A DNA stretch of 64,000 bases from a virus (IMGVR_UViG_3300037225_000856:48404-112403), one strand, 5' to 3'; counted from the stretch's first letter, positions 22,405 to 58,181 are shown. Notes: generated from the sequence alone by a model not told the origin. A program made the numbers and translations.

Positions 22405-24108
22405 ATGAAAAGTGATTTTTCAAAATTTCTTAATGGTGGCTATAAAGGAATATCTCAAATAAGAAATAAATTTCCTAATGAATATAATAACATTATAAAA
22501 TTCAATCAAAATTTTGGAGATATTCATTGGGGGCAAAAACTATATAATTATGTTAATAATTTAATTTTATTGCCCACATGTAAATGTGGAAATAGTGTTA
22601 AATTTTATAAATTTAACAAGGGATATGCCATATATTGTTCGAGTAAATGCAGATATGAAGATACTGAATTAAAATTAAAAATAAAACAATCGTTTTTAGC
22701 AAAATATGGCGTTGAAAATCCTTTACAATCTCCAGAAGTGCAAAAAAAACGAAAAGCATTGTTTTTTGAAAAACACGGAGTTGAACATCAATCACAATTA
22801 GCAGAGGTAAAAGAAAAAAGGAAACAAACAAATCTTGAAAGATTTGGCACGACAACAAATTTATTGTGCGAAGATACTAAAAAGAAAATAAAGATTACAA
22901 ATTTAAAGAAATTTGGTGTTGAACATAATTCACAATGTGAAGAAATTAAAGAAAAAAAGAAACAAACAAGTTTAAAAAATTGTGGTTTTGAATATAATTT
23001 TCAATCATCTGAATTTAGAAAACTTTCTAAAGTGTCAAACAATGAAAAATATTTAAAAAAAATATCGGAATTATTAAAATGTAATGTAAATGATATAAGC
23101 GTCAATGACAATATAATTACAGTTAAAAAATATTGTGAAAAACACGATTCATTTGAAATTACAAAACAAAATTTATATAGTCGATTTATCACATATAAAC
23201 AAATAAATTTTTGTACTAAATGTTATCCCATAAATGATAATATTTCAATAAAAGAAAAAGAATTAAAAAATTTTATTGACGAATTAATAATTAATAACAT
23301 AAAAAATTCTAAAAAAATAATTAATCCACAAGAAATCGACATCTATATACCTGAATATAAATTAGGTATTGAACTTGATGGTTTATATTGGCATAACGAT
23401 ATTGCAAAAGATAAAAATTATCATTTAAATAAAACTGAAGAATGTGAAAAACAGGGAATTCAACTATTACATATTTTTGAAGATGAATGGATTTATAAAA
23501 AAGAAATTGTAAAAAGTATTATTAAGTCTAAGTTAAATCTAATTGAAAATAAAATATTTGGAAGAAAATGCATCATTAAAGAAATTGATAACATATTAAG
23601 TTCTGATTTTTTAAAAACTAATCATATACAAGGATTTGTTGGAAGTAAAATTAAACTGGGTTTATTTTATAATAACGAACTAGTTTCAATAATGACTTTC
23701 GGTAAAAAAAGAATTAGTATGGGCAATAAACAACCAACAGATGAAGAATATGAAATGTTAAGATTTTGTAATAAGCTCAATACAAGCGTTATTGGTGGAG
23801 CAAGTAAATTATTGAGTTATTTTATAAAGAACTATCAACCAAAATTTATTTTAACTTTCGCAGATCGTAGATATTCAAATGGTAACCTGTATGAAAAATT
23901 AGGATTTAAGTTTATTGGTAACAGCAGACCTAATTATTGGTATTTTAAACAAAATGAATTAATCAGATATCATCGCTTTAACTTTAGAAAAGATAAATTA
24001 GTTAAAGAAGGTTATGATTTAAATAAAACTGAACATCAAATTATGGCAGAAAGAGAGTATTTATCTATACATGATTGTGGTAACATGAAATTTGAAATGA
24101 AATTTTAG
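22405..24108 (+). CDS. Putative homing endonuclease (KYGVE repeats, IELDGLYWH nuclease, Hef-like C-terminal region)
   Basis: CKCG...YCSSKC; KYGVENP repeats; EIDIYIPEYKLGIELDGLYWH; LLHIFEDEW; GGASKL...ADRRYS. Confidence 0.8.
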   Translation: MKSDFSKFLNGGYKGISQIRNKFPNEYNNIIKFNQNFGDIHWGQKLYNYVNNLILLPTCKCGNSVKFYKFNKGYAIYCSSKCRYEDTELKLKIKQSFLAKYGVENPLQSPEVQKKRKALFFEKHGVEHQSQLAEVKEKRKQTNLERFGTTTNLLCEDTKKKIKITNLKKFGVEHNSQCEEIKEKKKQTSLKNCGFEYNFQSSEFRKLSKVSNNEKYLKKISELLKCNVNDISVNDNIITVKKYCEKHDSFEITKQNLYSRFITYKQINFCTKCYPINDNISIKEKELKNFIDELIINNIKNSKKIINPQEIDIYIPEYKLGIELDGLYWHNDIAKDKNYHLNKTEECEKQGIQLLHIFEDEWIYKKEIVKSIIKSKLNLIENKIFGRKCIIKEIDNILSSDFLKTNHIQGFVGSKIKLGLFYNNELVSIMTFGKKRISMGNKQPTDEEYEMLRFCNKLNTSVIGGASKLLSYFIKNYQPKFILTFADRRYSNGNLYEKLGFKFIGNSRPNYWYFKQNELIRYHRFNFRKDKLVKEGYDLNKTEHQIMAEREYLSIHDCGNMKFEMKF

Positions 24109-26877: not shown

Positions 26878-29517
26878 ATGACTTACGATAACTTCTTAAA
26901 ATTATTGGATGAATTTGAAGAAATACAATCATTTGCAAAGAAAATTGAATTCGCTAATCGATATTTTCAAAGAATAGGTAGTGGGTCAGGTAGAATAGTT
27001 TATGATATTGACGGCACTAAAGTTTTTAAATTGGCAAAGAATGCCAAAGGCGTTGCTCAAAATGAAGCTGAAATAAATATTGGTTCATATCATGACACTC
27101 ATAGTATAGTTACAAAAGTTTTAGAAAGTGATAATAATGGTAGTTGGATTATTTCCGAAAAAGCAAAAAAGGTTAACGAAAACAGAATTAAACAATTAAC
27201 TGGCATTCCAAGTCTAAATGATTTATTTTATTTTCTTAGAAATCATGAAGACAACATTAAAGGTGGCAAGGGTATATTTGGTCAGGATGCAGATATTAAA
27301 GAGTTATTAAATGATAATGAATTTGCTATTGAATTAGAAGACATAATGGCAAATTATTCTGTATCTGCTGGCGACTTAGGCAGACCAAGCACATACGGTG
27401 AAGTTCTTCGTGACGGTCAGCCAACAATTGTTTTAACTGATTATGGATTAACAGGTGAAGTGTATAATACTCATTACAGTCCAAATAGAAAGAAAAATTA
27501 TCGCCTTTTTGAATTGTATGATAATTATGATGGTAATGATGATATACTTGGAGATATGCCACCACAAGATGCAATTGATACACGTAGAGGCATGTGGGCG
27601 CAAATACCTTACAGCGTAGGCGATGGTAGCGGTGTGATAAATGAAGGTTTTATATCATTTATACTTGACAGAGATAAGTATCCGACAAGAGTGTTGCCGA
27701 GCGCACCATATATAGTCGATGAATTTCATAATTGTGTAAATAATATTGACGAAACTTTGAATCATGTTAAAAATAAAAAGAAATTTTATGAAAATTTATT
27801 GAAACTTCAAGAATATCTTATTGAACAAAAATTTTATGACAGAGAACCTTTAGGTGAAATTGTATATTTAAAAGAAGACGGTAGTGCTTTATATTCTACT
27901 GATAATGCAATGGGACAAGATAATTTTCCTGTACATAATAATATCGATACTTCACCTTCAATTAGAAATGATCTTGATGCAAATAGAGATAAAATTAATG
28001 AAGAAAAATGGACAGGTAAAGCGTATAGAGTAGAATCTGGTTTTAGTAATTTACGTGATACAACTGCCGGGGATGTTGTAAGATTTGAAAGAGATGAATT
28101 GGGAAATGTAGGTGATTTTGCGCACATTACTGATGAAAAATTAAAAGAATTAAATAATTATTCTGCTCATGATATTGCTTGGTATACAAAAAATTTTGAA
28201 GATGCTAAAAGATATTCAGAAACAGACGATTTTTCAGATATTGAAGAATATGAATTATCTGGCGAAATTATTGCTACCGATGGTGATGGTGGATATTTAG
28301 TTTTAAATAATCAATTGAAAGAAGATTTAGAATATCATAATGTGGTGGGAGATGCCACAAAAGATCAATACATGTTGGATGAAAGACAATTATCTTCAAT
28401 GGCTGGCAGCAGTACTGTTGAAATAAAAAAGAAATGTAGATTAGGTGGTTTAGGAAATACAAGTGCGCAGTGCAATTGGGGTGATATTAATGCTGTAGAT
28501 ATTAAACCGCTTAAAGAAGAGGTTAATGAAGAAGTTAATGCAAAAGAAATGCGCAGCGATATTGCTGCAATTAAATCAATTCTAAATGGAAAGAGAGGGG
28601 TTGCTTTTACTGAAATAAACAAATCCATTGCTCAAAAACTTGAAAAAAAGAAAATTGGTGTTATTCCTACAAGAATGACTTCAAATAACACAATGTTTGC
28701 AATTATATATACCGATAAGGTTAATGCATATTTACTTTATGAATTTGCAAAGAAAAATAATGGATATCTTTTAGATAAAACTTCAGAAGAAGCACGTGAG
28801 ATTGGAAAATTATTGAATTATTCACCAAGCGATATAGAGCAACACATTCGTAATAAATATAATAAAAAACCACCATTAATGCCCGACAAGTCACCGGATG
28901 ATTTTAATGACTTGGCTGAAAATGCTTCACTGGACTTTTGGGATTTGAATGAAGAAAAATTTCCTGAATTCGAAAAAGATATTCAGCAAGACCTTACAAC
29001 ACATCAATTGGATAAAAAATATATAAGAAGTTATCAGGACGGAGAACATACATACAATGTTTATGCTGTTAATGGTGATGAAGTTCGTGATAGTGGTTTT
29101 ATTGAATGGGTAGATGGTGGTAACCATTGGGTTGATGCCGATTTACCGAAAATCGAACAAAAATATGCAAAACATATTGGAGAAAATGATTATTGGATTG
29201 ATGATGTGTTTATGGTTAAACCAGCAGACTTTGAAGCAATATTATTACATGAGAGAACAGAAAGTTTTATCATAAGACATTATGGTTATGAATATAATGA
29301 TGCTCATAATATTGCGAACAAAGTTGAAATGATGTTTAGAAAAAAAATACCTGATGGAGCAAATCGTGCTCTTGCTGAGAAAATTTATGATATATTTGTA
29401 GCTAATTTCAAACCAGAAAAGAGTAAACAGAAACATAAACCAGTAAATGAAATGTTAAATGAAGCACAAATAATTTTAATTAATATCAATGAAGCAAAAT
29501 CAATGATGAAAATATGA
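26878..29517 (+). CDS. Multidomain (polyvalent) protein: N-terminal kinase-like domain, degenerate ART-like segment, C-terminal HExxE..H zincin-like domain
   Basis: IGSGSGRIVY...VFKLA...NEAE...GDL...LTDYG (protein-kinase fold); AYR...WYTKNFEDAKRY; LLHERTE...YNDAH; many [LIV]xE linkers. Confidence 0.65.
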   Translation: MTYDNFLKLLDEFEEIQSFAKKIEFANRYFQRIGSGSGRIVYDIDGTKVFKLAKNAKGVAQNEAEINIGSYHDTHSIVTKVLESDNNGSWIISEKAKKVNENRIKQLTGIPSLNDLFYFLRNHEDNIKGGKGIFGQDADIKELLNDNEFAIELEDIMANYSVSAGDLGRPSTYGEVLRDGQPTIVLTDYGLTGEVYNTHYSPNRKKNYRLFELYDNYDGNDDILGDMPPQDAIDTRRGMWAQIPYSVGDGSGVINEGFISFILDRDKYPTRVLPSAPYIVDEFHNCVNNIDETLNHVKNKKKFYENLLKLQEYLIEQKFYDREPLGEIVYLKEDGSALYSTDNAMGQDNFPVHNNIDTSPSIRNDLDANRDKINEEKWTGKAYRVESGFSNLRDTTAGDVVRFERDELGNVGDFAHITDEKLKELNNYSAHDIAWYTKNFEDAKRYSETDDFSDIEEYELSGEIIATDGDGGYLVLNNQLKEDLEYHNVVGDATKDQYMLDERQLSSMAGSSTVEIKKKCRLGGLGNTSAQCNWGDINAVDIKPLKEEVNEEVNAKEMRSDIAAIKSILNGKRGVAFTEINKSIAQKLEKKKIGVIPTRMTSNNTMFAIIYTDKVNAYLLYEFAKKNNGYLLDKTSEEAREIGKLLNYSPSDIEQHIRNKYNKKPPLMPDKSPDDFNDLAENASLDFWDLNEEKFPEFEKDIQQDLTTHQLDKKYIRSYQDGEHTYNVYAVNGDEVRDSGFIEWVDGGNHWVDADLPKIEQKYAKHIGENDYWIDDVFMVKPADFEAILLHERTESFIIRHYGYEYNDAHNIANKVEMMFRKKIPDGANRALAEKIYDIFVANFKPEKSKQKHKPVNEMLNEAQIILININEAKSMMKI

Positions 29518-30368
29518 ATAAAAATACTTGGACTAATAATGAAATAATATTATTAAAAAATAATTTTGCAATAAAAACAAATGAGGAATTAATTAGTTTA
29601 TTTTCAAATAGAACAATTATGTCAATTAAAGTTAAAGCAAAACGACTTAAATTAAGAAAAAATAAAGAAACTGAATTTAGAAATAGAAGTATTGCTCATC
29701 TGGGAGAAAAAAATTCAATGTGGGGTAAAATATCTAAAATACATGGAAAAAATTATGATGATTATTATGGTAGTGAAAAATCAAAAGAAATAAAAACTAA
29801 ATTATCAAAAGATAAGATTGAAAAACATAAAAATGGTGTATTAAATACTTCTGGTATTAATAATGGTATGTTTGGTAAAATATCACCAAATAGAGGAATA
29901 ACAATGGTAATTGAACAAAGAAAAAAAATATCTGATGCAAAAAAAGTATATTGGAATAATTTATCGGATAAAAGAAAAAATGAATTAAATTTAATTAGAA
30001 TTAATAATATTTATAAAAACAAAATAATTGATACTAAACCTGAAATTATTATTGAAAATTATCTTAAAGAAATTAATGTTTATTATAGAAAAAAAGAAAT
30101 TGTCGGATATTATAATTGTGATTTTATGATTAATGATAAATTAATTATTGAAGTGCAAGGAGATTATTGGCATGCAAATCCAATTAAATATTTAAATAAA
30201 AAATTAACATTAGCACAACAAAATAACATACATAGAGATAAAAGAAAGTTTACTTATTTAAGTAATCGTAATTATAAAATATTATATTTGTGGGAAAATG
30301 ATATATATCGAAATTTGAACATTTGTAAAAATCAAATAAATAATTTAATATATGGGAAAACTGAATGA
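29514..30368 (+). CDS. Putative homing endonuclease (NUMOD3-like + Vsr/DUF559-like nuclease)
   Basis: GEKNSMWGK and NGMFGK repeats; TKPE...CDF...IIEVQGDYWH...YLWE. Confidence 0.8.
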   Translation: MNKNTWTNNEIILLKNNFAIKTNEELISLFSNRTIMSIKVKAKRLKLRKNKETEFRNRSIAHLGEKNSMWGKISKIHGKNYDDYYGSEKSKEIKTKLSKDKIEKHKNGVLNTSGINNGMFGKISPNRGITMVIEQRKKISDAKKVYWNNLSDKRKNELNLIRINNIYKNKIIDTKPEIIIENYLKEINVYYRKKEIVGYYNCDFMINDKLIIEVQGDYWHANPIKYLNKKLTLAQQNNIHRDKRKFTYLSNRNYKILYLWENDIYRNLNICKNQINNLIYGKTE

Positions 30369-33300
30369 TTTTATATTAATATTAAAGCAAAAACCTTTTA
30401 TTAAATCACTAATAAATGATTTAAAATCAGATGTTTATGTAGTTGGTGGAGTTGTGCGTGATCTTATACTTAATAAACCCAATAAAGATATTGATTTGGT
30501 GGTTGGAAAAGTACCAATAGACAAATTAGTTGCACATTTACAAAAATTTGGTAAGGTAGATGTTGTGGGTAAATCATTTGGAGTCATTAAATTCATTGAT
30601 AATGAGGGTATTGATTATGATATTGCTTTACCGAGACGAGAAACTAAAAACAGTGAGGGTGGATATCGTGGATTTGATGTACAAAGTGATGAAAATCTTC
30701 CAATTGAAGACGAATTAATTAGAAGGGACGCTAAGATGAATGCTATGGCTATTAATATTAATACAAATAAATTTATTGACCCATTGGGAGGATTAGAAGA
30801 TATAAAAAATAAACAAATATCTGCAGCAAATCCAGAGGCGTTTTCAGATGACCCATTAAGAGCTATAAGATTCTGTTCATTTGCTTCACGTTTTGGATTT
30901 ACTATTGACCCAGACACAATGAAAATGATTCAAAAAAATGCTGGGAGAGTAAAAGAAATAGCACCAGAGAGAATTTTGACAGAATTTGATAAAATTGTCA
31001 AAAAGGGAAACAAACTATTGGCTGCAACACTACTTGATGAAACTGGTTTGCTTAAAGAAATATTTGGTAGAGGACTATATTATGATTTCAGAAATACAAA
31101 AGAACCCTTTGATAAAGTAAAAACAATGAGTGAATTTATTTATTTGTTAAGTAAAAATCTTGTTAATGACCCTGCAGAGTTTTACAAAAATAATCTTAAA
31201 GGTGATGAAAATACATACAGAGAAATAAAAGCACTTCAAATAGCATATGATAGCGGTGAAGCAACCAATTTAATTGAAGCAAGATCAATTGCACATAATA
31301 TGTACGTGATATCTCCAATATCATTACAAAGTCAGATATTGCCAAATGTAATTAAAACTGCTGCACAAGAATTATTTGAAGGCAAGTATCCCAAAACTGT
31401 TAATGAATTGGCAGTAAATGGTAATGATTTAATGGAACTTGGTTTACAAGGTAAAGTAATTGGTGATATGCAAAAATCATTATTATTAAAGATTTATTCA
31501 AATAAAATTAGGAATAATAAAGAAGAATTGCTAAATTTGGCGGGTCAAAATAAACCAATGATTAAAGAAGAAGTTAGCGAAAGAATTGAATATGGAGCAT
31601 TGTTATTATTTCTCGATATTCCAATTTGGAATAAAATTACATCAATAATCAATAAAGAAGATTTATATGATGAAGAAGGTTATGGTATTGAATCTGACCC
31701 ACATGTTACAATATTATATGGTTTCCATGATGAAGTTACTGCTGAAGAAGTGTTTGATTTATATAAATTAAATATACCATTAAAACCAATTGAAATACGT
31801 ATTAAAGGTATTAATATTTTTGAAACTTTTAAATTTGACGTAGTAAAATTTGATGTCGAATCCGATATACTTAAAAAAGCACATGAGATAATGAAAGATT
31901 TGCCAAATACTGAAGATTTCCCTGATTATCATCCGCATATAACAATTGCATGTGTAAAAAAAGGTGAGGGCAAAAAATATACTAAACCATTTGAAAAAGA
32001 AATAATATTAAAAGGTAATAAATTAATATATTCTACTAAAGGTCAAAGAGGTGATGCTGGCGAAAAACTAATGCTTGAAGGTGTTGCTGATAGATATGCG
32101 GAGAAAACATTCAACATACCCGACCCAAATACTCAGAATGATGTACAGGCAATGGGAGATATACAAAAAAGTGTTGAAGAACCTATTGGTTATGTTACAC
32201 CTTACTCCTCAAATGATTCAGCTAAAGAAGTACCAATATATTTAAATCCAAAGTCATTAACTAATTTTGCTGATAATGTCAGGGTAATTGTAAATGATAA
32301 AGGAGATTTATATATTGCACAGGAAGATGGCAGATTTAATCATGGCATGATGGCAAAGGCATTAGGTTTATTTGCTTCTGATAATGGAATATATAATGAT
32401 ATGGATGAATATCAATTATTGCATAGAGTAGACAACACTAATGCATTTGGGTTAGGCGATACTGCTGAAGATTATATTGAAAGAAAATATGAAAATAGAG
32501 TATATTTATTAAACATATTACGTCAGGCAAAAAGAAAAAATCCACAATATGATTTTTATAATGAATATTATGCGAATATAAAAGGTGAACCAGTAAGTCT
32601 TAATGAATTTGCTTATCCTGAAATAAGACCAGAAGAAAAAAATACTTGGAATATAAATGGAGAAAATGTTGATATTAAGTTTTTTGTTGAAAAATATGAC
32701 ATATGGAATCAGGGTGGATATGCAGACCCTTCAGAAGCATCTGTGTTAGAATTTCTTCAAAATAATTATGAAGATTTCATTCATGACGAGAAACTTAAAA
32801 AAGAATTACTTGTGGCTTTAACTGATAGAAATGTATTAGATGAAACGGTTTTAAATGAAATGTCAATTCAGACAATAGATTATACCGATATTATTACTCC
32901 AGAATATATTAAAGAAGTAGAAATGAGTGATAATTATGAAAGATATATTGAATATTATCAGTATGAAGAAAATATGGTTCATGTTGACAAAGAAGAAATT
33001 GAAAAAACTGAAAATTTTAAAAAATGGTTCAGATATGAATTAAGTGTCAGATATGAGGATGTTGTTGATAATATAACAAATAAAATAAAACCTGATGGTA
33101 CTATTGATATTTGGAGAAGAATAAAAGTTGATGATATTTGGGTTAATCATCTTTTACAAGCGGGAAAACATTTGGGTATTTATTGGTCATGGGATGAACG
33201 TGCTGCAGAAGCACATTGGGGTGATACAGCAAAAAACAGTAATGCATTAATAAAATCTTCAATAAATGAAAAATATATTGATTGGAAAAATACAATATAT

Positions 33301-33462
33301 GCAAACATGGATTTAAGTCTTGGTGAAGATGAAAAAGAAATAAGATTGTTTAAAAATACATCATTAAAAATTGAAGAATTAAATATTGATGGTCAAAATG
33401 TTGAAGATATTATGGGAAGCGATTATGAATTACAATTAAGAAATAAAACATTTTATGCGTAA
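30352..33462 (+). CDS. Polyvalent protein: class II CCA-adding/poly(A) nucleotidyltransferase + Acb1-like 2H phosphoesterase + unknown domains + R-S-E ADP-ribosyltransferase-like domain
   Basis: VGGVVRD..KDIDL, RRD..MNAMA, DPLGG..D, FSDDPLRAIR, ERILTEF; PHVTILYG and YHPHITIA (two HxT motifs); IWR...GIYWSWD...EDEKEIRL. Confidence 0.8.
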   Translation: MGKLNDFILILKQKPFIKSLINDLKSDVYVVGGVVRDLILNKPNKDIDLVVGKVPIDKLVAHLQKFGKVDVVGKSFGVIKFIDNEGIDYDIALPRRETKNSEGGYRGFDVQSDENLPIEDELIRRDAKMNAMAININTNKFIDPLGGLEDIKNKQISAANPEAFSDDPLRAIRFCSFASRFGFTIDPDTMKMIQKNAGRVKEIAPERILTEFDKIVKKGNKLLAATLLDETGLLKEIFGRGLYYDFRNTKEPFDKVKTMSEFIYLLSKNLVNDPAEFYKNNLKGDENTYREIKALQIAYDSGEATNLIEARSIAHNMYVISPISLQSQILPNVIKTAAQELFEGKYPKTVNELAVNGNDLMELGLQGKVIGDMQKSLLLKIYSNKIRNNKEELLNLAGQNKPMIKEEVSERIEYGALLLFLDIPIWNKITSIINKEDLYDEEGYGIESDPHVTILYGFHDEVTAEEVFDLYKLNIPLKPIEIRIKGINIFETFKFDVVKFDVESDILKKAHEIMKDLPNTEDFPDYHPHITIACVKKGEGKKYTKPFEKEIILKGNKLIYSTKGQRGDAGEKLMLEGVADRYAEKTFNIPDPNTQNDVQAMGDIQKSVEEPIGYVTPYSSNDSAKEVPIYLNPKSLTNFADNVRVIVNDKGDLYIAQEDGRFNHGMMAKALGLFASDNGIYNDMDEYQLLHRVDNTNAFGLGDTAEDYIERKYENRVYLLNILRQAKRKNPQYDFYNEYYANIKGEPVSLNEFAYPEIRPEEKNTWNINGENVDIKFFVEKYDIWNQGGYADPSEASVLEFLQNNYEDFIHDEKLKKELLVALTDRNVLDETVLNEMSIQTIDYTDIITPEYIKEVEMSDNYERYIEYYQYEENMVHVDKEEIEKTENFKKWFRYELSVRYEDVVDNITNKIKPDGTIDIWRRIKVDDIWVNHLLQAGKHLGIYWSWDERAAEAHWGDTAKNSNALIKSSINEKYIDWKNTIYANMDLSLGEDEKEIRLFKNTSLKIEELNIDGQNVEDIMGSDYELQLRNKTFYA

Positions 33463-34160: not shown

Positions 34161-34337
34161 ATGAAAAGCAAAGACAAAACAAGAACAGTTACACCAATGG
34201 ATGTAGCCAAATTTTTAGGTGTTGAAAAAGAATATAAAGAAGTTCTTTTTGAACAAGAACTGAAAGAAAATCATGATATTATTATGAGTAATAATATCGA
34301 AGAAAATAATACTATTAGAAAAGATAACAATAAATGA
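34161..34337 (+). CDS. 58-aa mini-protein duplicating the C-terminal module of the downstream gene
   Basis: MKSKDKTRTVTPMDVAKFLGVEKEYKEVLFEQELKEN...; ATGA overlap with 34334; alternative start at 34197; GTATTTATT at 34152. Confidence 0.55.
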   Translation: MKSKDKTRTVTPMDVAKFLGVEKEYKEVLFEQELKENHDIIMSNNIEENNTIRKDNNK

Positions 34338-35893
34338 AAGCATTAAATGAAGCATTTGTTATAAGCAAAAGAACAGATCAGAAGGGTAATTATATTGCAT
34401 ATATTGACCCGAATAAGCCAGAAAACAAAGAAACTTTTAAATACAAAGACATATTTAAGAATCATGGTGCTAAATGGAATAATGATTATAAATTTTGGTT
34501 TTGGTATATAGGCAAAACAAAAGATCAATGGCAAAACGTTTACAGTCATTTCATTGAACCAGCATTAAAAGAAGTACATGCATTAGAAGGTGCTCCAGAA
34601 GAAGAAAGTGCTGCAGCATTAATATCATCACTGGATGCTCTTTTGTCAGAAATTAGTGCAACACCAACCACTACAAATCCAGAAAATGACGCTGAACTTA
34701 CGCCTGACGAAAAAAGAGCACTTATTGATAAATTAGGAAAGTTTAAAGAAACTTTGGTCAATATTGATAGCGATGAAGAATTTAAAAAAACAATGCAAAT
34801 TATTTTATCTTTTAAAAATTCTCAAGGACATTCATATAGTTTCATGAATAGCATATTGATTATGATTCAAAATCCTAATGCAAGTTTAGTAAAAAGCGAA
34901 ATCAACTGGAATAGATTTAATAGAAGTGTTGTTGATAAGAAAAATAGAATGATTATACGTTCTCCGAGTAAGAGAGCAATGAGACCATATTCTAAAATTG
35001 AAAAAGAAAAAATTACTGGAGAATTTTTAAAGTCAGTTGGTAAAAATACCTATAATGAATTGGGTCCGGGTGAACGTGAACGTCTTGGCGTTCAACTTCG
35101 TGGAGCGTTTAGTGGTCATGATTTTGACTATACGTTTGTATATGATGTTTCGAATACTCAACAAATGGAAGGCAAAGAAAATTTCTTGGGTGATTATGAA
35201 AAACGTAAAGAGATTAAATGGTTTGAAGAAAACATGATAAGTGAAGAAATCAGACCAATATATAAATCATTGCTTGATTTTGCTCAAGAAAACGGAGTTA
35301 AAATAGAATTGGTTGATGAATTGGATGGTGCAAGAGGTGTTAGTCATAATGGTATGATTCAAATTTTAAAAAACGAAGGCAATGATGTTGGTTTAACAAA
35401 AACATTGGCACATGAAATTGCACATGAATTATTACATCAAAGTTATATGAAAAATAAGAATTCAAAATATTCACAATATTTTGTAGGTAAAGCTGAAGGC
35501 AGAGATGCTGTTGAACAACAAGCTGAATTGACAGCATGGATGGTATTAGGCTCATTTAATTTTGACTTGAAAACAACTTCCTTAAATTATGCAGCAATGT
35601 GGGGTGCTGATAAAGATGCTATGATTCGTGTATTTGATACAGTATCTGGTGTTGTCAGTATGTTGGTGGATTATATTAGCAGGAAAATTAAAAATAATGC
35701 AAACAATGCTGTACCACAAAATAACACAAATGCAGCTACACCACAAAATGAAACGCTTGACAATACATCAAGAACAGTTACTCCAATGGACGTAGCAAGA
35801 TTTATTGGTGTTGAAAAAGAGTACCAAGATGTTTTAAATAAAAATAAAAGCGAACTGGTAGAAAATTTCTACAGTTTATTAAAAAAATTATGA
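34334..35893 (+). CDS. ArdC-N-like ssDNA-binding domain + ImmA/IrrE-like metallopeptidase (polyvalent anti-restriction type)
   Basis: GAKWN...W N-terminal domain; YSFMNSILIMIQNPNA...W; VYDVSNT; TLAHEIAHELLH...EQQAE. Confidence 0.75.
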   Translation: MKALNEAFVISKRTDQKGNYIAYIDPNKPENKETFKYKDIFKNHGAKWNNDYKFWFWYIGKTKDQWQNVYSHFIEPALKEVHALEGAPEEESAAALISSLDALLSEISATPTTTNPENDAELTPDEKRALIDKLGKFKETLVNIDSDEEFKKTMQIILSFKNSQGHSYSFMNSILIMIQNPNASLVKSEINWNRFNRSVVDKKNRMIIRSPSKRAMRPYSKIEKEKITGEFLKSVGKNTYNELGPGERERLGVQLRGAFSGHDFDYTFVYDVSNTQQMEGKENFLGDYEKRKEIKWFEENMISEEIRPIYKSLLDFAQENGVKIELVDELDGARGVSHNGMIQILKNEGNDVGLTKTLAHEIAHELLHQSYMKNKNSKYSQYFVGKAEGRDAVEQQAELTAWMVLGSFNFDLKTTSLNYAAMWGADKDAMIRVFDTVSGVVSMLVDYISRKIKNNANNAVPQNNTNAATPQNETLDNTSRTVTPMDVARFIGVEKEYQDVLNKNKSELVENFYSLLKKL

Positions 35894-36276
35894 GTAATAT
35901 ATCATATAGTGCAGTTGTACTTGACGAACAATCAAGAGAAAGATTAATCAACAGGTTTAAATCAATAATTCCAGAAGGATTTGAAATTATTGCGCATCAT
36001 ATGACTGTTAATTTGGGTGAAATTGACCCTGAATATGAAAAGTATCTTGGCTTAGCTGTACGTTTAACTGTTAATGATATTGCTATGGATGATAAAGTAA
36101 TTGCAGTTGGCGTATCATCAGGAATTAATAGTCATAATACCAAAGCACATATAACATTGGCAGTAAATAAGGCAAATGGTGGCAAACCAGTGATGTCAAA
36201 TTATCTAACTAATTGGGAGAAATTACGCAGACCATTATTATTAAGAGGAAAAATAACTCAAGTAGAATTTAAATAA
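35890..36276 (+). CDS. 2H phosphoesterase (RNA-repair cyclic phosphodiesterase type)
   Basis: AHHMT and AHITLA HxT motifs; GKPVMSN. Confidence 0.75.
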   Translation: MSNISYSAVVLDEQSRERLINRFKSIIPEGFEIIAHHMTVNLGEIDPEYEKYLGLAVRLTVNDIAMDDKVIAVGVSSGINSHNTKAHITLAVNKANGGKPVMSNYLTNWEKLRRPLLLRGKITQVEFK

Positions 36277-36277
36277 A

Positions 36278-37189
36278 ATGATAACAAGACTATGTGCATT
36301 TGATTTTGATAGTACTCTTATAGATTCTCCCCAAAAAGAAAGTGGAAAAATTCAATGGTCAGAGAAAATGGGAAAGCCACATCCATATCAAGGCTGGTGG
36401 GGTAGACCAGAAAGTCTTGATTTAAATGTTTTTAATATTAAACCATTTCCTAAAATATTGAATCTTTTAAATAAAGATGTTTCAACACCAGCTACATATA
36501 CAATTATATTGACTTCAAGACAGGAAAAATTACGTCCTTTAGTTCAGGAAGTATTGGATGTTAATAATATTCATATTGATAAACTCGATATGCAATGTGA
36601 TCAAAGAACTAAAGGTCAAAAAATTCTTGATTATACAAAGAAATTTCCAGACCTGAGAGAAATTAATGTTTACGATGACAAAGATAGTGATATTATATCA
36701 TACGAAGGAATAAGAAATTCATTACCTGAAGATATAAAATTTAATATTTATCTTGCTAATCAAGGTAGTTTAACTTTAGTTGAAGCAGAAAGTAAACTTA
36801 TATCAATTATTAAAGAAGAAGTTCAAAATTTTGTTCCTGATAATAACTATGTATATCATGGTACATATGATGGTGCTGGTTACTACATACAGCGTACAGG
36901 TAGTATGAAGATTAATGCAGCAAATAATAATGAACCTTTTATTTCATTTACCAGCAAACCAAATGTTGCAAAATATTATGCAGATATGAAAGGCGGGTCA
37001 GCCAGAGGTATTGTACTTAGAACAAAAAAGACTGCAGACTTTACACCATCACTTAAATATAAAAAAAATGAAGGATATGAATGGGTAACAACCAGAGAAA
37101 TACCAGTAGATGAATTAGAAATTAACACAAAATACGGTTGGATTCCATTGAATAATTGGGATTTTATCGATAAAGAAATAAAAAAATAA
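36278..37189 (+). CDS. HAD phosphatase (RNA-repair 'Swiss-army-knife' type) fused to an ART-like domain
   Basis: FDFDSTL, WWGRPESL, LTSR, TKG, YDD; then IIKEE linker and VYHGT...ISFTS...AKYYA...EW. Confidence 0.75.
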   Translation: MITRLCAFDFDSTLIDSPQKESGKIQWSEKMGKPHPYQGWWGRPESLDLNVFNIKPFPKILNLLNKDVSTPATYTIILTSRQEKLRPLVQEVLDVNNIHIDKLDMQCDQRTKGQKILDYTKKFPDLREINVYDDKDSDIISYEGIRNSLPEDIKFNIYLANQGSLTLVEAESKLISIIKEEVQNFVPDNNYVYHGTYDGAGYYIQRTGSMKINAANNNEPFISFTSKPNVAKYYADMKGGSARGIVLRTKKTADFTPSLKYKKNEGYEWVTTREIPVDELEINTKYGWIPLNNWDFIDKEIKK

Positions 37190-42330: not shown

Positions 42331-42729
42331 ATGGCTTCATATAATATTACCTTTCCATTAAATGATGATGTCAGCACAAATACTTATTTTTTAATGAGTA
42401 AAGTGACCAAAGACGCATTCAGTTCTGACTTGTTATTACTCTTGCTTACGAATAAAGGTGAAAGATATTATGAACCAATGTTTGGAACAAACATGTTGAA
42501 ATACATATTCGAACCGAATGATAATTTAAATGCAAATGATATTGAACAAGAAATTAAAACAACAGTATCGACATATATTCCAGCACTTACAATTAATAGT
42601 GTAACATTTAATTGGCTTACAGATGATGAAGGAAATCCAATATCAGAAAATCAGATAAATGTTAATATTAAATTTACATTTAGCGAAGATGCTTTTAGTG
42701 AAAAAGGTGAATTAGATTTAAACTTTTAA
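42331..42729 (+). CDS. Baseplate wedge protein, gp25/GPW-like
   Basis: LLLTNKGERYYEPMFGTNMLKYIFEP. Confidence 0.85.
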   Translation: MASYNITFPLNDDVSTNTYFLMSKVTKDAFSSDLLLLLLTNKGERYYEPMFGTNMLKYIFEPNDNLNANDIEQEIKTTVSTYIPALTINSVTFNWLTDDEGNPISENQINVNIKFTFSEDAFSEKGELDLNF

Positions 42730-42739
42730 AATATAAAAT

Positions 42740-44590
42740 ATGGCAAACGACACAACAACAAATATAATCCAATATGGTTCACGCACATTTGGTGACATAC
42801 GTACTGACTTAATCTCATATATCAGACAAGCATACCCTGAAGTTTTATCTGACTTTACTGATAGTTCAGTTGGTGCAATGACGATAGACCTCAATGCTGG
42901 TGTTACTAATAACTTAAGTATAAATTTAGATCGTAGTTTTCAGGAAACGCAATTAGAATATGCACAACAAAGAGCATCAATATTAAATGCTGCGAAAAAT
43001 ATGGGATTTAATATCCCAGCAAGAAGACCTTCAGTAACAGTAATTGATTTTACAGTAACAGTTCCTGTTCTTGGCGACAAACCAGACGCTTCATATTATC
43101 CTCAATTACAGGCAGGCGCACAAATACTTGGTGGTGGAAAAATATTTGAAACACAAACAATTATTGATTGGAGTTCACCAATAAGTAATTTAGGTGACCC
43201 TAATCGTTCTATTATTCCAAACACAGATTCAAATGGCATTATTATTAATTACAGTATAACAAAAAGAGAAGTGGTTATTAATGGTTCTACAAGCATTTTT
43301 AAAAGAGCAATTAGTGCAACAGATATTATACCATTTTTTTCAATAATATTGCCAGACCCAGACGTACTCGAAATAGATAATATTATTCTATTGGAAGGTA
43401 CTAATTATTCAAGTAATCCGACTGCTGCAGATTTTGCAACAGCAGCAAACAAATATTATGAAGTAGATTGGCTTGCACAACAAAGAGTATTCATTCAAGA
43501 TACAAGTAGTTCACAACCAAATACAAACACAAATGGACTTAAATCAGCAACATGGATTGATGTAACTAAAAAATTTATAAAAGAATTCACAACCAATGGT
43601 TATTGTAAAGTGATATTTGGTTCAGGTGATGCAGATGTTAATGCATTTAAATCAGGTTTTCTCAAAATGGGTGTAAGCAATCAGTATTTTCTTGAAAACT
43701 TTTTAAATAATACAGCATTGGGTGAAAAATTATTAGCAAATTATACATTATTTATTCAATATAGAACTGGTGGCGGTAGTAACTCAAACGTGGGAGCAGG
43801 TACTTTAACGCAACTTGGTAATTATAATTTAACAGTTATAGGTGGTTCTCGTCAGGATTATATTCAAACAGTACAAAGAAGTTTAAGTGTAAATAATCCA
43901 ATTCCAGCAATTGGCGGTAATGACGGATTAAGTATTGAACAAATAAGACAATTAATTAAATATAATTTTAGTAGCCAAAATAGAGATGTAAATTTAACAG
44001 ATTATTTATTGCAGCTTTATAAGATGCCGGGGCAGTTTGGTTCACCTTTTCGTGCTAATTCAATGAAATTAAATAACAAAGTTGTTATTTCAACATTAGG
44101 TATTGGGTCAGATGGTAAATTAGACAATACAAGTACCACATTAATGAATGAAAATATTGCAGAATATCTTAGTCAATTCAGAATGCTTAATGATTATGTT
44201 GAAGTAACTAATGGTAAGATATTTAATTTAGCTTTTGATGTTGATGTATATGTTGAAAATGTTGCTGATAATCAGGTTGCAAATAGTATTATTACACTTG
44301 TTAGAAACTATCTGAATATTAATAATTATGAAATGAATCAGGATTTGTTTTTAGGTCTGCTTCAACGTGAAATACTCTCAGCCAATGGAGTTATTAACGT
44401 TATTGACATTAAAGTATATAACAGAGTGGGTGGTTCATATTCGAATAATGTTATTTCACAAGACGTAAATCCAAGTACTGGTGAGATAACAATCATTAAC
44501 AATACCATTCATTCAACCGAAGATAGTATGTTTGAAATTCGCTTCCCGGAGAAAGACATTACAGTTTTCTTACGTAAATCAACAGGTTAA
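42740..44590 (+). CDS. Baseplate wedge protein, T4 gp6/baseplate-J-like
   Basis: TFGDIRTDL...SDFTDSS..., AQQRASI...MGF, FGSG, YRTGGG..SNV, GGNDG.SIEQIR...QNR.V...DY. Confidence 0.85.
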   Translation: MANDTTTNIIQYGSRTFGDIRTDLISYIRQAYPEVLSDFTDSSVGAMTIDLNAGVTNNLSINLDRSFQETQLEYAQQRASILNAAKNMGFNIPARRPSVTVIDFTVTVPVLGDKPDASYYPQLQAGAQILGGGKIFETQTIIDWSSPISNLGDPNRSIIPNTDSNGIIINYSITKREVVINGSTSIFKRAISATDIIPFFSIILPDPDVLEIDNIILLEGTNYSSNPTAADFATAANKYYEVDWLAQQRVFIQDTSSSQPNTNTNGLKSATWIDVTKKFIKEFTTNGYCKVIFGSGDADVNAFKSGFLKMGVSNQYFLENFLNNTALGEKLLANYTLFIQYRTGGGSNSNVGAGTLTQLGNYNLTVIGGSRQDYIQTVQRSLSVNNPIPAIGGNDGLSIEQIRQLIKYNFSSQNRDVNLTDYLLQLYKMPGQFGSPFRANSMKLNNKVVISTLGIGSDGKLDNTSTTLMNENIAEYLSQFRMLNDYVEVTNGKIFNLAFDVDVYVENVADNQVANSIITLVRNYLNINNYEMNQDLFLGLLQREILSANGVINVIDIKVYNRVGGSYSNNVISQDVNPSTGEITIINNTIHSTEDSMFEIRFPEKDITVFLRKSTG

Positions 44591-45241: not shown

Positions 45242-46231
45242 ATGAAAATTAGTAGAAGAACATATTCTGAAAATGAAATCAATGAAATGATATTGTTGTA
45301 TAAATCAGGAATGTCGCTTTTTAAAATTAGAGAAAATTTAAAGATGGATAAGAGTAACATAAAAAAAATTCTTATTCAAAATAATGTTTGGATTGAAGGA
45401 AGAGACAATAATAAAAAAATTGGTGAATATAGTAAGGATGAAATCAATAAAATTGTTTCATTATATCAATCAGGTGTGTCATTAACATCAATCAGCGATA
45501 AGTTAAATATTGTGAGACGTGTTGTAAAGAAAATACTTATTCAGAATAACGTTTGGATTGAAAATAGAGATAATGTGAAAATTCAATTTTCAAATGACGA
45601 TAAAAAGAATATATTTGATTTATACATTAATAAAAATTTAAGTACATGTGAAATCGCCAACATTTATGGTATTAGTAAGATACCAATAATAAGAATATTA
45701 AAAGAATTGGATATTTTAAGAAAAGGATATAGTAACGGTATTAAAATTATTTTAACGCAAAAGCAAAAAGAAAACATAAAAGATTTATATTTAAATGATA
45801 ATAAAAATGCTGAAGAAATCGGAAAAATTATTGGATGTTCGGGCAATTTTATTAGTGGTTATTTATCAATAAATAACTTAATGAGAAGCAGAAGCGAAGG
45901 GGCATCAGTGGGATTTTTTAAACGTACTGGTATTAATTATAATGAATATTTAAAAAGTCTGCCAGAGCGTGAAAAATATAGACGTGAAGTAATATCTTTA
46001 ACAAATAAACAACCAATTAACTTATTAAAAAATTATGAAAAGAGAGGTGTTTCGGGACTTGATGGTGTGTATCATTTAGATCATAAATACTCGATTTTTG
46101 AAGGATTTGAAAACAACATTAAGCCAGAAATAGTTGCAAGTTTAAAAAATCTTGTATTTATACCTTGGAGAGATAATGTTGTTAAGAGAACTAATTGTTC
46201 GATAACTAAAGAAGAATTGATAAATACTTAA
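45242..46231 (+). CDS. Putative HNH homing endonuclease with tandem HTH repeats
   Basis: Four LY..G.S...I...L HTH-like repeats; YHLDHKYS...NL...W.DN..K. Confidence 0.75.
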   Translation: MKISRRTYSENEINEMILLYKSGMSLFKIRENLKMDKSNIKKILIQNNVWIEGRDNNKKIGEYSKDEINKIVSLYQSGVSLTSISDKLNIVRRVVKKILIQNNVWIENRDNVKIQFSNDDKKNIFDLYINKNLSTCEIANIYGISKIPIIRILKELDILRKGYSNGIKIILTQKQKENIKDLYLNDNKNAEEIGKIIGCSGNFISGYLSINNLMRSRSEGASVGFFKRTGINYNEYLKSLPEREKYRREVISLTNKQPINLLKNYEKRGVSGLDGVYHLDHKYSIFEGFENNIKPEIVASLKNLVFIPWRDNVVKRTNCSITKEELINT

Positions 46232-56897: not shown

Positions 56898-58181
56898 ATG
56901 CAAAAAGTCGAAAGTCATATAATTAAACATAATAACCCCTTATTTAAAGAAATTGATAAATTATCTTTTTTATCTAAAAATTTATATAATAAATGTTTAT
57001 ATGAATACCTTGAAGCATTAAAAAATAATGTTTATCACAACGAATCTACTTTACATTATTTATTAAAAAATCATGAGGACTATATTAAATTGCCCCGTAA
57101 AGTTAGTTCTTCAATTATTATTCAAACAATTAAAAATTGGAAATCATATTATAAAGCAGTTAAATCTTATAATAATAACCCTGAAAATTTTAAATTGAAA
57201 CCCAAACAACCCTTCTTTAAACATAAAACAAAGGGAAGAAATGTTCTAATTTATACTAATCAAGCATTTTCAAAAAAAATATTTAATAAGACAGGAAAAA
57301 TAAAATTATCACAATCAAATATTGAAATTAAAACCAAAATAACTGATTTTAAGATTATAAATCAAGTAAGAATTGTACCAAAATATGGTTACTATGTTAT
57401 TGAAATAGTATATACAATACTTGATATTCAGCCGTTAATAAATAACGATACTTATTTAAGTATTGATTTAGGTGTTAATAATTTATGTGCGGTTACATCT
57501 AATGTTATTAATCCGTTTTTAATAAATGGCAAACCCTTAAAATCCATTAATCAATATTATAATAAAAAGAAAAGTGGGTTAAAATCTAAATTATCATATA
57601 AAAAAGATTCTAACAATAACTTTATTATGAATAATTTAGGTAAAAAAATACAAAATAAAACTTCAAAAAGAATCGAAAATTTAAGTTTAAAACGTAAGAA
57701 TAAGATAGATAATTATCTATACAAATCAAGCAAGTTAATAATAAATAAAGCAATAGAACATAATATCAACACTATTATTGTAGGTAAAAATAAGCAACAG
57801 AAACAAAAAATAAATATAGGTAAAACTAATAATCAAAATTTCGTAGATATTCCTTTAAGTAGATTTATAAATATGTTAAATTATAAATGCGAAGAGAAAG
57901 GTCTCAATTTAATCCAACAAGAAGAAAGTTATACATCAAAGGCATCATTCTTGTCAATGGATAAAATTCCAATATATAATAAATCAGGTAATGAGAGCAT
58001 AATATTTAGCGGTTACAGAAAATATCGTGGTTTATATCATGATAAGAGGAGTAATTGTAATATCAATGCTGATATTAATGGTAGTTATAATATATTGAGA
58101 AAAGCAATCCCAAATGTATTTGTTGATGGGATAGAGGGTGTTAGAGTTCATCCCAACATAATTAACATTAAAAAATGTTAA
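56898..58181 (+). CDS. tnpB: IS200/IS605-family TnpB RNA-guided endonuclease (solo, no tnpA)
   Basis: SKNLYN, QVRIVP, SIDLGVNN (RuvC-I), IIVGKN, QEESYTSK, INADINGSYNILRK (RuvC-III). Confidence 0.9.
   Translation: MQKVESHIIKHNNPLFKEIDKLSFLSKNLYNKCLYEYLEALKNNVYHNESTLHYLLKNHEDYIKLPRKVSSSIIIQTIKNWKSYYKAVKSYNNNPENFKLKPKQPFFKHKTKGRNVLIYTNQAFSKKIFNKTGKIKLSQSNIEIKTKITDFKIINQVRIVPKYGYYVIEIVYTILDIQPLINNDTYLSIDLGVNNLCAVTSNVINPFLINGKPLKSINQYYNKKKSGLKSKLSYKKDSNNNFIMNNLGKKIQNKTSKRIENLSLKRKNKIDNYLYKSSKLIINKAIEHNINTIIVGKNKQQKQKINIGKTNNQNFVDIPLSRFINMLNYKCEEKGLNLIQQEESYTSKASFLSMDKIPIYNKSGNESIIFSGYRKYRGLYHDKRSNCNINADINGSYNILRKAIPNVFVDGIEGVRVHPNIINIKKC

Follow-up and report, generated by a model that had tools for sequence, protein, structure and literature searches.

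A phage polyvalent protein centred on a CCA-adding enzyme, with modules bordered by hydrophobic-x-Glu junctions

What kind of protein is encoded at positions 30352 to 33462 of the virus sequence IMGVR_UViG_3300037225_000856:48404-112403, and do its parts work joined or apart? The 64,000-nucleotide stretch analysed (hereafter the window, from whose first letter positions are counted) is part of a 112-kb IMG/VR virus record of about 29% G+C, for which CheckV estimates a completeness of 37%; the phage is therefore of roughly 300 kb. A first-pass annotation, made from the DNA alone, had described here one open reading frame (ORF) joining a tRNA CCA-adding enzyme, an Acb1-like 2H phosphoesterase and an ADP-ribosyltransferase (ART)-like domain, with two unassigned segments and linkers taken to be cleavable. 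We find that the encoded protein, P0001, belongs to the phage ‘polyvalent proteins’, here centred on a CCA enzyme. Its CCA-centred build, a predicted new ART family, a domain without detectable known fold and a defined junction signature are new. In our preferred reading, to which we assign a probability of about 50%, P0001 would be the C-terminal half of a jumbo-phage polyvalent protein whose modules are separated proteolytically, most likely by a T4-gp21-like protease, and ejected as cargo.

The single ORF is present on the + strand and encodes 1036 amino acids (aa), with the qualification that it makes up the C-terminal half of what was once a larger gene. The motifs by which the first-pass annotation had divided it were all found in place, namely IKEE at 31561, HVT at 31702, HIT at 31936, MLE at 32071, LNE at 32599 and LDETVLNE at 32836. 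The resulting features are listed below; a slash in a motif here and in the text marks a module boundary.

30352..33462, + strand: the reported ORF, P0001, 1036 aa, C-terminal half of a split polyvalent protein
30352..31560, + strand: class II CCA-adding tRNA nucleotidyltransferase, aa 1-403, from Pfam PF01743 and PF12627, phrog_2244 and motifs
31561..31572, + strand: junction 1, M-IKEE (IKEE = aa 404-407), resembling the ..IIKEEI.. leaders of stand-alone homologues
31573..32070, + strand: 2H phosphoesterase domain, aa 408-573, from Pfam Acb1 and 2_5_RNA_ligase2 and two HxT motifs
32071..32079, + strand: junction 2, M-L-E (aa 574-576), its E being the first residue of domain X's conserved EGVADKYAEK start
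32080..32598, + strand: domain X, aa 577-749, conserved alpha/beta domain, from alignment A2 and an AlphaFold2 (AF2) model
32599..32607, + strand: junction 3, L-N-E (aa 750-752), from the motif in the translation
32608..32835, + strand: domain Y, aa 753-828, small, a beta-hairpin and three helices
32836..32859, + strand: junction 4, LDETVLNE (aa 829-836), predicted disordered, with VLNE/MSIQ kept in relatives
32860..33459, + strand: domain Z, aa 837-1036, an N-terminal helical bundle and then a predicted ART-fold core, with R922, S944 and E994-x-E996

The segment boundaries agree with blocks of homology to within a few residues. Coverage by 119 BLAST homologues of P0001 is ~112 over aa 20-400, ~65 over 420-570, ~43 over 580-745, ~75 over 760-835 and 9 over 840-1036, and the steps in coverage fall at the motif positions, which are therefore true module boundaries and not chance tripeptides. 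That the fusion is an artefact of assembly or annotation was considered and rejected, as relatives at 57-86% identity (e.g. P0002, P0005 and P0008) share the module order. The proposal that the segments are independent modules was likewise borne out, each being found as a stand-alone protein and in shuffled orders. A megablast search of the ORF gave no match, and the best GenBank phage match to it, confined to the CCA part, reaches only 40% identity.

Iyer, Burroughs, Anand, de Souza and Aravind (2017; PMC5512222) described polyvalent proteins with ART, kinase, GNAT and 2H modules, among them truncated-kinase versions in Bacteroidetes phages, and predicted that they are packaged in the capsid and injected. 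The same authors proposed the 2H domains as RNases or degraders of nucleotide signals, and invoked MPTase autoprocessing for the MPTase-bearing polyvalent proteins. P0001 shares with this class the presence of many unrelated conflict-type domains on one phage polypeptide, in variable order and with solo versions. However, that study (PMC5512222) lists no class II CCA-adding enzyme, and its Pol-beta nucleotidyltransferases are minimal firmicute types; the ART of P0001 (domain Z) differs from ART-PolyVal, and the junctions of P0001 add a hydrophobic-x-Glu signature and a Cys cassette.

The variability of the architecture is considerable. A length-restricted search returned 231 relatives, on contigs of up to 366 kb, which combine the CCA enzyme with 2H variants, ART-PolyVal, GNAT, NUDIX and tRNA_lig_CPD domains. 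The five modules of P0001 stand in at least 24 orders, including CCA-Y (30), CCA-2H-Y (12), 2H-CCA (11) and CCA-Y-2H (9), with a median of 390 further residues per protein lying outside these five modules. An exhaustive HMMER search with the C-terminal 477 aa (560-1036) gave 945 representatives among 1.8 billion proteins, in many of which X, Y or Z stands alone, and the search with the 2H segment found 158 stand-alone 2H proteins.

The modules are bordered by a common short signature, a hydrophobic residue, any residue and Glu (hydrophobic-x-E). It lies within 10 residues of the module start in 70-95% of cases across the five modules, compared with 22% at random positions. The narrower form hydrophobic-N-E, counted over non-identical instances within the same distance, precedes CCA in 46%, 2H in 28%, X in 9%, Y in 38% and Z in 56%, against a background of 3.2% at random positions. 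The motif is often L/I-N-E and stands before Z, Y, 2H and CCA, whether the module is solo or part of a polyprotein, as in VLNE/MSIQ, SLNE/FAYPE, SLNE/QVKK..EYG and IMNE/AEII; domain X begins hydrophobic-x-E/GVADKY. Junctions 2 (KLMLE) and 4 (LDETVLNE) are predicted to be disordered, and the AF2 model has a predicted local distance difference test score (pLDDT) below 50 at model residues 258-265 (junction 4).

Solo homologues carry N-terminal leaders with a median length of 14 aa (range 6-34), for example MKTFKQYILQE, MKHLTLFENFLAE and MKIDNIIKEEILSFLNE. These leaders end in hydrophobic-x-E in 75 of 97 solo 2H proteins, 8 of 11 X, both Y and 29 of 32 Z proteins. Furthermore, a Cys cassette of ~35 aa, (M[AP]GS..V.V)KKKC.LGG.GNTS..CNQGDI..L.[IF]K.[LI].E, was found at module junctions in 58 distinct instances, every one of which (58/58) ends in a hydrophobic-x-Glu site; one of them lies at about aa 510-545 of the 879-aa ORF that forms the upstream half of the split gene. 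The cassette may serve in processing or docking, or may form a tiny domain with two Cys.

Before the window, at G000:C1:26158-30225, there is also a run of small and medium ORFs with long leaders ending in L-N-E or L-K-E, such as MKVFNSYGTPERLFEMMKRVNKLNE and MKVFKPTGSKERFAEIFQGVNKVKLNE. These ORFs matched no PHROG family and may be further members of the same payload class.

A precedent for such leaders exists in phage T4, whose capsid-targeting sequence (CTS) MKTYQEFIAE is removed by the prohead protease gp21 (PMC8442874, PMC9026906). Prohead proteases of T4, phiKZ and SPN3US cut after Glu in a short motif with Glu at P1 and a hydrophobic residue at P3 (PMC9026906). The T4 cargo consists of variable counter-defence proteins together with Alt, an ART that is packaged, trimmed by gp21 and injected (PMC9026906, PMC5512222), the trimming of Alt occurring at both ends (PMC9026906, PMC3012670). 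T4's internal proteins and Alt have short N-terminal leaders ending in L/I-x-E (MKTYQEFIAE, to be compared with MKTFKQYILQE here) on diverse counter-defence or host-modifying cargo that includes an R-S-ExE ART, and the modules described here resemble them in both respects. In contrast to T4, the signature here is also found between the domains of very long polyproteins, and the phage of the record is unrelated to T4 at the sequence level (no megablast match); the likeness drawn here rests on sequence.

In the mechanism that we propose, the modules would be parted by proteolysis at the conserved hydrophobic-x-Glu junctions, a T4-gp21-like prohead protease would act on capsid-targeted cargo, and the processed cargo would later be ejected into the host, where domain Z would ADP-ribosylate a host target in the manner of T4 Alt and Mod, ARTs that modify host targets. 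Judged from the signature, cleavage at the junctions is somewhat probable; capsid delivery, argued by analogy with T4, falls a little short of even odds. As for the cleavable linkers of the first-pass annotation, a common and strongly enriched hydrophobic-x-Glu signature consistent with cleavage has been found, while the cleavage itself we infer.

Several observations weigh against this reading. Peptidase_S77 (PF03420, the family of T4 gp21) was not found in the phage's own 37%-complete record, in four relatives (18-61% complete) or in control genomes, a null result that is uninformative because prohead proteases diverge strongly among large phages. No head genes were found on the 112-kb fragment, and PHROG annotation of the 25-42 kb region of the genome record gave a recombinase, an exonuclease and a primase. 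The hydrophobic-x-E motif is short, and its fixed offsets may in part stem from helix caps or from N-termini passed on with each domain; in domain X the middle position of the motif is rarely N. In a high-GC phage of 607 kb, a domain Z homologue lacks the leader of the AT-rich clade, and the downstream half in the window now starts MGKLND, with no obvious leader of its own. Finally, the ART structural Z-scores of domain Z are modest (at most 6.7), and its assignment as an ART is without a confirming sequence family.

Alternatively, the junctions could be processed outside the prohead, in the cytoplasm or after delivery, either by an HExxH zincin-like neighbour or by self-cleavage at the Cys cassette. 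The neighbour in question is:

34334-35893: metalloprotease-like protein, 519 aa, with a HEIAH motif, starting MKALNE; weak phrog_87 match, E 1.8e-6

Its gene lies two genes downstream of the ORF, and its own start carries the L-N-E signature. The conserved Cys cassette precedes the sites, and MPTase autoprocessing has been invoked in the polyvalent-protein literature. However, Glu at P1 with a hydrophobic P3 marks prohead serine proteases (PMC9026906), not zincins; the PHROG match of the neighbour is weak, and no Pfam peptidase was found in it. We regard processing outside the prohead as quite improbable, and retain a gp21-like prohead protease in the preferred reading.

The locus itself provides a further view of whether the modules need to be joined, because the ancestral gene has been split. 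The features concerned are as follows.

26846: putative promoter motif GTATTTATA, upstream of the ORF at 26878
26878..29517, + strand: N-terminal half of the ancestral polyvalent-protein gene, 879 aa, with kinase-like N-terminal region(s) and a Cys-cassette junction
29500..30360, + strand: inserted cassette, ~861 bp, from DNA and protein comparison with the uninterrupted relative L004
29514-30368, + strand: free-standing homing-endonuclease-like ORF, 284 aa, with weak Vsr/DUF559 matches and a weak PHROG endonuclease match

The upstream ORF of 879 aa aligns collinearly with residues 1-990 of P0038, a relative of 1734 aa, and its ...MLNEAQII stands opposite ...IMNEAEII, where the CCA module of P0038 begins. 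In the relatives L004 and L006 a single ORF of 1971 or 2021 aa covers both halves and is flanked by the same genes. At the insertion site L004 reads ...NINEAK/LILNNFITILKQ, where the slash marks the point of insertion, and comparison with it shows a clean insertion in the window; a duplicated sequence flanking the endonuclease was rejected on the same comparison. The upstream half ends ...ININEAK, followed by SMMKI and a stop, this five-residue tail not being homologous to the relatives, and after the endonuclease ORF the downstream half starts with MGK joined to LNDFILILKQ. The endonuclease cassette provides a stop codon for the upstream half and an ATG for the downstream half, and both halves are still open. 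An Rfam intron search of 29200-30700 gave no match at E<=1, and the ORF overlaps (ATGA; the new ATG inside the 3' end of the endonuclease) favour a free-standing insertion.

An ancestral gene of ~1,970-2,020 codons has thus been split by an endonuclease insertion two codons past an I-N-E junction. The two products are therefore almost those that cleavage at this junction would yield, and a split nearly at a junction with both halves open fits modules that work apart. In T4-like phages, free-standing homing endonucleases make genes-in-pieces, such as the split nrdA reported for Aeromonas phage Aeh1. There, as here, the endonuclease ORF is inserted frame-neutrally and supplies a stop and a new start, leaving the halves open; unlike in nrdA, the break here falls at a natural junction of polyprotein modules, and no reassembly of the halves need be assumed. 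The split at a junction is in effect a natural experiment, indicating that the halves need not be covalently joined.

The motif GTATTTATA, which lies upstream of the polyprotein operon, was found at 23 sites in all, compared with 6.6 expected, and it also precedes the baseplate-wedge genes (42331-44590). That the operon and virion genes have this putative promoter motif in common is a circumstantial sign of packaging and delivery. The GTATTTATW sites lie on the + strand in 21 of 23 cases, many of them 20-30 nt upstream of start codons (e.g. 21676, 26091, 26846, 37197, 38502, 42307, 53756 and 56869), and GTATTTATW is likely to be a phage promoter element, perhaps a late one. The genome is heavily colonised by mobile elements: in the window their genes lie at 22405-24108, 29514-30368 and 45242-46231 (homing/HNH endonucleases) and at 56898-58181, the last matching only a transposase family.

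The identities proposed for the three recognisable modules, a CCA enzyme, a 2H domain and an ART-like fold, held in Pfam, PHROG, PDB profile and structure comparisons. In the CCA module the PolyA_pol head (PF01743) matches aa 28-156 with E 2.9e-22 and 79.8 bits against a cut-off of 23, PolyA_pol_RNAbd (PF12627) matches aa 182-238 with 52.4 bits, and tRNA_NucTran2_2 matches aa 348-396 weakly, while phrog_2244, tRNA nucleotidyltransferase, gives E 5.6e-56 over the module. The translation contains the catalytic motifs VVGGVVRD, DIDLVV (DxD) and IRRDAKMNAMA (RRD); the EDxxR position reads SDDPLRAIR, i.e. DDxxR with Asp replacing the first Glu. The module most plausibly matures or rebuilds tRNA 3' ends. 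The sole tRNA on the 112-kb record, a tRNA-Met (CAT) at G000:C1:41355-41425, has no encoded CCA, its downstream sequence being ACAAAA.

The class II head and neck motifs are common to this module, to the E. coli-type CCA enzyme with its C-terminal HD phosphohydrolase domain and to the phrog_2244 phage enzymes. No HD domain was found in the CCA module. As Yakunin et al. reportedly found in 2004, the HD domain of the E. coli CCA enzyme has 2',3'-cyclic phosphodiesterase activity. A nucleotidyltransferase is coupled to an end-healing phosphoesterase in that enzyme, as it would be here, with the difference that the phosphoesterase is an HD domain there and a 2H domain within a polyprotein here.

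The adjacent 2H module has its HxT motifs at H451 (HVT, nt 31702) and H529 (HIT, nt 31936). In a 41-sequence alignment (A3), no variation is seen at H47, H125 and T127, and at least 90% of the sequences keep T49. The motifs predict a catalytically complete enzyme, whose substrate is not readable from sequence. Two Pfam families exceed their cut-offs of 27 bits, Acb1 (PF23474, 31.5 bits, covering only profile positions 59-130 of 144) and 2_5_RNA_ligase2 (PF13563, 28.4 bits), and TIGR02258 of NCBIfam gives a weak match. A search of the PDB with the single sequence matched only Acb1 (7t26, E 1.7e-4), whereas the 41-sequence profile matched both Acb1 (9q2g, 25.2 bits, E 1.1e-4) and a Pyrococcus LigT-like protein (1vdx, 23.7 bits, E 3.1e-4). 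The designation ‘Acb1-like’ therefore stands in so far as no other solved structure matches better than Acb1, but a LigT-type protein from an archaeon comes close behind, and by sequence the module appears equidistant from Acb1 and archaeal LigT. Acb1, an anti-CBASS 2H nuclease, and the LigT/ThpR-type 2H enzymes, which are RNA 2',3'-cyclic phosphodiesterases, share with it a length of ~165 aa, the 2H fold and two HxT motifs; unlike them, it is fused to a CCA enzyme, and its stand-alone relatives bear cleavable-looking leaders. Most likely, the module opens 2',3'-cyclic phosphate ends of RNA and/or degrades cyclic-oligonucleotide immune signals.

It has to be considered whether the 2H module is a true Acb1 that degrades the signals of CBASS (antiphage signalling that is based on cyclic oligonucleotides) or other cyclic oligonucleotides, which would make the protein chiefly an anti-signalling and anti-tRNA-damage tool. 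The score of PF23474 above the Pfam gathering threshold, the sole single-sequence match to 7t26 and the leading profile match to 9q2g all point in this direction, as does the prediction by Iyer et al. (2017) that 2H domains of polyvalent proteins degrade nucleotide signals. However, PF13563 is likewise above its threshold, the LigT-type protein follows Acb1 closely in the profile search, and the Acb1 alignment is restricted mainly to the catalytic core. An anti-CBASS role of the module is possible from its sequence; that the module is a true Acb1 and the protein chiefly such a tool, we hold to be doubtful.

The LigT-type score also bears on a different proposal, that P0001 is an uncleaved, cytoplasmic tRNA-repair multi-enzyme of the ‘Swiss-army-knife’ kind, with nothing packaged and the junction motifs serving as linkers. 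In such an enzyme the 2H domain would stand in for the HD domain of E. coli-type CCA enzymes: where host defences have cut tRNAs, it would open the resulting 2',3'-cyclic phosphate ends, and the CCA enzyme fused to it would restore the 3' end. The CCA and 2H modules are adjacent, directly or via Y, in most relatives, which together with the equal fit of the 2H profile to LigT, the TIGR02258 match, the activity mentioned above of the E. coli HD domain and a sole tRNA without encoded CCA speaks for this proposal. A NUDIX gene lies upstream. Downstream, at 35890-37189, a 128-aa protein matches tRNA_lig_CPD, a fungal 2H family, with 23.4 bits against a cut-off of 23, and a 303-aa protein comes near to HAD_SAK_1, the HAD domain of ‘Swiss-army-knife’ RNA-repair proteins (24.5 bits against a cut-off of 25.6); the two genes suggest an RNA-repair theme around the ORF. 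However, tRNA repair leaves the ART domain and X unexplained, as it does the shuffled orders with GNAT, NUDIX and ART-PolyVal and the junction and leader signature common to unrelated domains, and the window showed neither an RNA ligase nor a kinase. Such an uncleaved repair enzyme therefore seems rather unlikely to us, and separated, delivered modules remain our preferred reading.

Domain Z, which tRNA repair does not accommodate, was examined in an alignment of 49 sequences (A1) that includes solo homologues of ~200 aa. The R-S-ExE pattern claimed for this last domain was borne out: R86 (aa 922), G106, W109, E158 and E160 (aa 994 and 996) are invariant, and S108 (aa 944) is S, T or rarely A. 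The R, S/T and ExE positions coincide with strands predicted at 81-90, 108-110 and 160-163, corresponding to strands 1, 2 and 5 as in R-S-E ARTs. The AF2 model of the domain has a pLDDT of 94.7. Structure comparison of residues 76-198 with VIA-align gave IcmQ at Z 6.7 (root-mean-square deviation 3.5, 104 aa), the Rhs toxin TreX at 5.8, EcPltA, HopU1 and CARDS toxin at 5.0, and LT, Scabin and DarT at about 4.7, with Tpt1, Arr, pertussis toxin and diphtheria toxin at lower Z; the top matches are ARTs throughout and essentially nothing else. Foldseek against the PDB gave no match at E<=0.001, its sub-threshold list being mostly ARTs, and the ESM Atlas gave, besides a DUF4765 lead at 0.92, only clusters of viral hypothetical proteins.

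Neither Pfam nor a PDB sequence search with the Z profile gave a match for any of the 49 members, which makes this a new family at the sequence level. A tblastn search of domain Z against 50,697 GenBank phages gave no match. Assignment to ART-PolyVal (PF18760) was rejected: Pfam gave no match to it in P0001 at E<=1, hhalign of A1 against the ART-PolyVal segments of relatives gave a non-significant probability of 1.6%, and the catalytic pattern there is HGT...FFST, compared with R...S...ExE in Z. We propose that domain Z represents a new family of R-S-ExE ARTs, for which the fold evidence, from a predicted model, is moderate and the motif evidence is good. From its ExE motif it is predicted to be an arginine-directed ART, or of a related type, acting on a host target.

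A homologue of Z (YWSWDENAAEAHWG ... EEEKEVRIL) was observed at L013:5665-6327, on a high-GC IMG/VR contig of 607,744 bp, where it adjoins a DNA polymerase gene. The proposed ART family thus extends across huge phages that differ widely from one another.

The two segments left unassigned by the first-pass annotation proved to be genuine conserved domains, and Pfam, PHROGs and NCBIfam gave no family for either in searches of aa 560-1036. Domain X starts with the conserved EGVADKYAEK and has N, P, L, F, G, H, R, F and N as nearly invariant residues (alignment A2); its AF2 model has pLDDT values mostly above 90. It occurs as solo proteins of ~170-200 aa and in 2-4 tandem copies in relatives, and judged from these homologues domain X is widespread in huge phages. 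A tblastn search of X against 50,697 GenBank phages gave no match. With a model of X and Y, Foldseek found no match in the PDB at E<=0.001 and BFVD gave nothing significant; the ESM Atlas held no usable match for X. VIA-align of X gave a best Z of 2.8 (a phosphohistidine phosphatase), with three NFACT-R-containing proteins at Z 2.3-2.6, scores too weak for use. One might speculate from its tandem amplification that X acts in binding or as an inhibitor, and less probably as a housekeeping enzyme.

Domain Y is the commonest partner of the CCA module and is present in 73 of the 119 relatives. Its similarity to the N-terminal domain of ribosomal protein eS17 (Z 5-6) is weak and generic. Both X and Y are most likely accessory or binding modules.

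Taken further, and only tentatively, these features might describe a clade of uncultured phages of ~300 kb, probably infecting Bacteroidota, in which dozens of modules are tagged with T4-CTS-like leaders and joined into giant polyproteins, to be cut by the prohead protease at their hydrophobic-x-Glu joints. The capsid-delivered cocktail would then include the first virion-borne CCA enzyme, a new ART family and domain X, perhaps as an inhibitor or a signal sponge, and the Cys cassette would serve specifically for processing or docking.

Should the modules be separated by cleavage and then injected, tRNA-end repair, phosphodiesterase activity and ADP-ribosylation would act before phage gene expression, and the principle of the T4 internal proteins and Alt would extend to the polyproteins of huge phages. 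The hydrophobic-x-Glu junction and leader signature offers a simple sequence handle for listing the payload of such phages, and makes the payload hypothesis directly testable. Moreover, at least two unannotated, widespread domain families have been delimited, which are candidates for new counter-defence activities.

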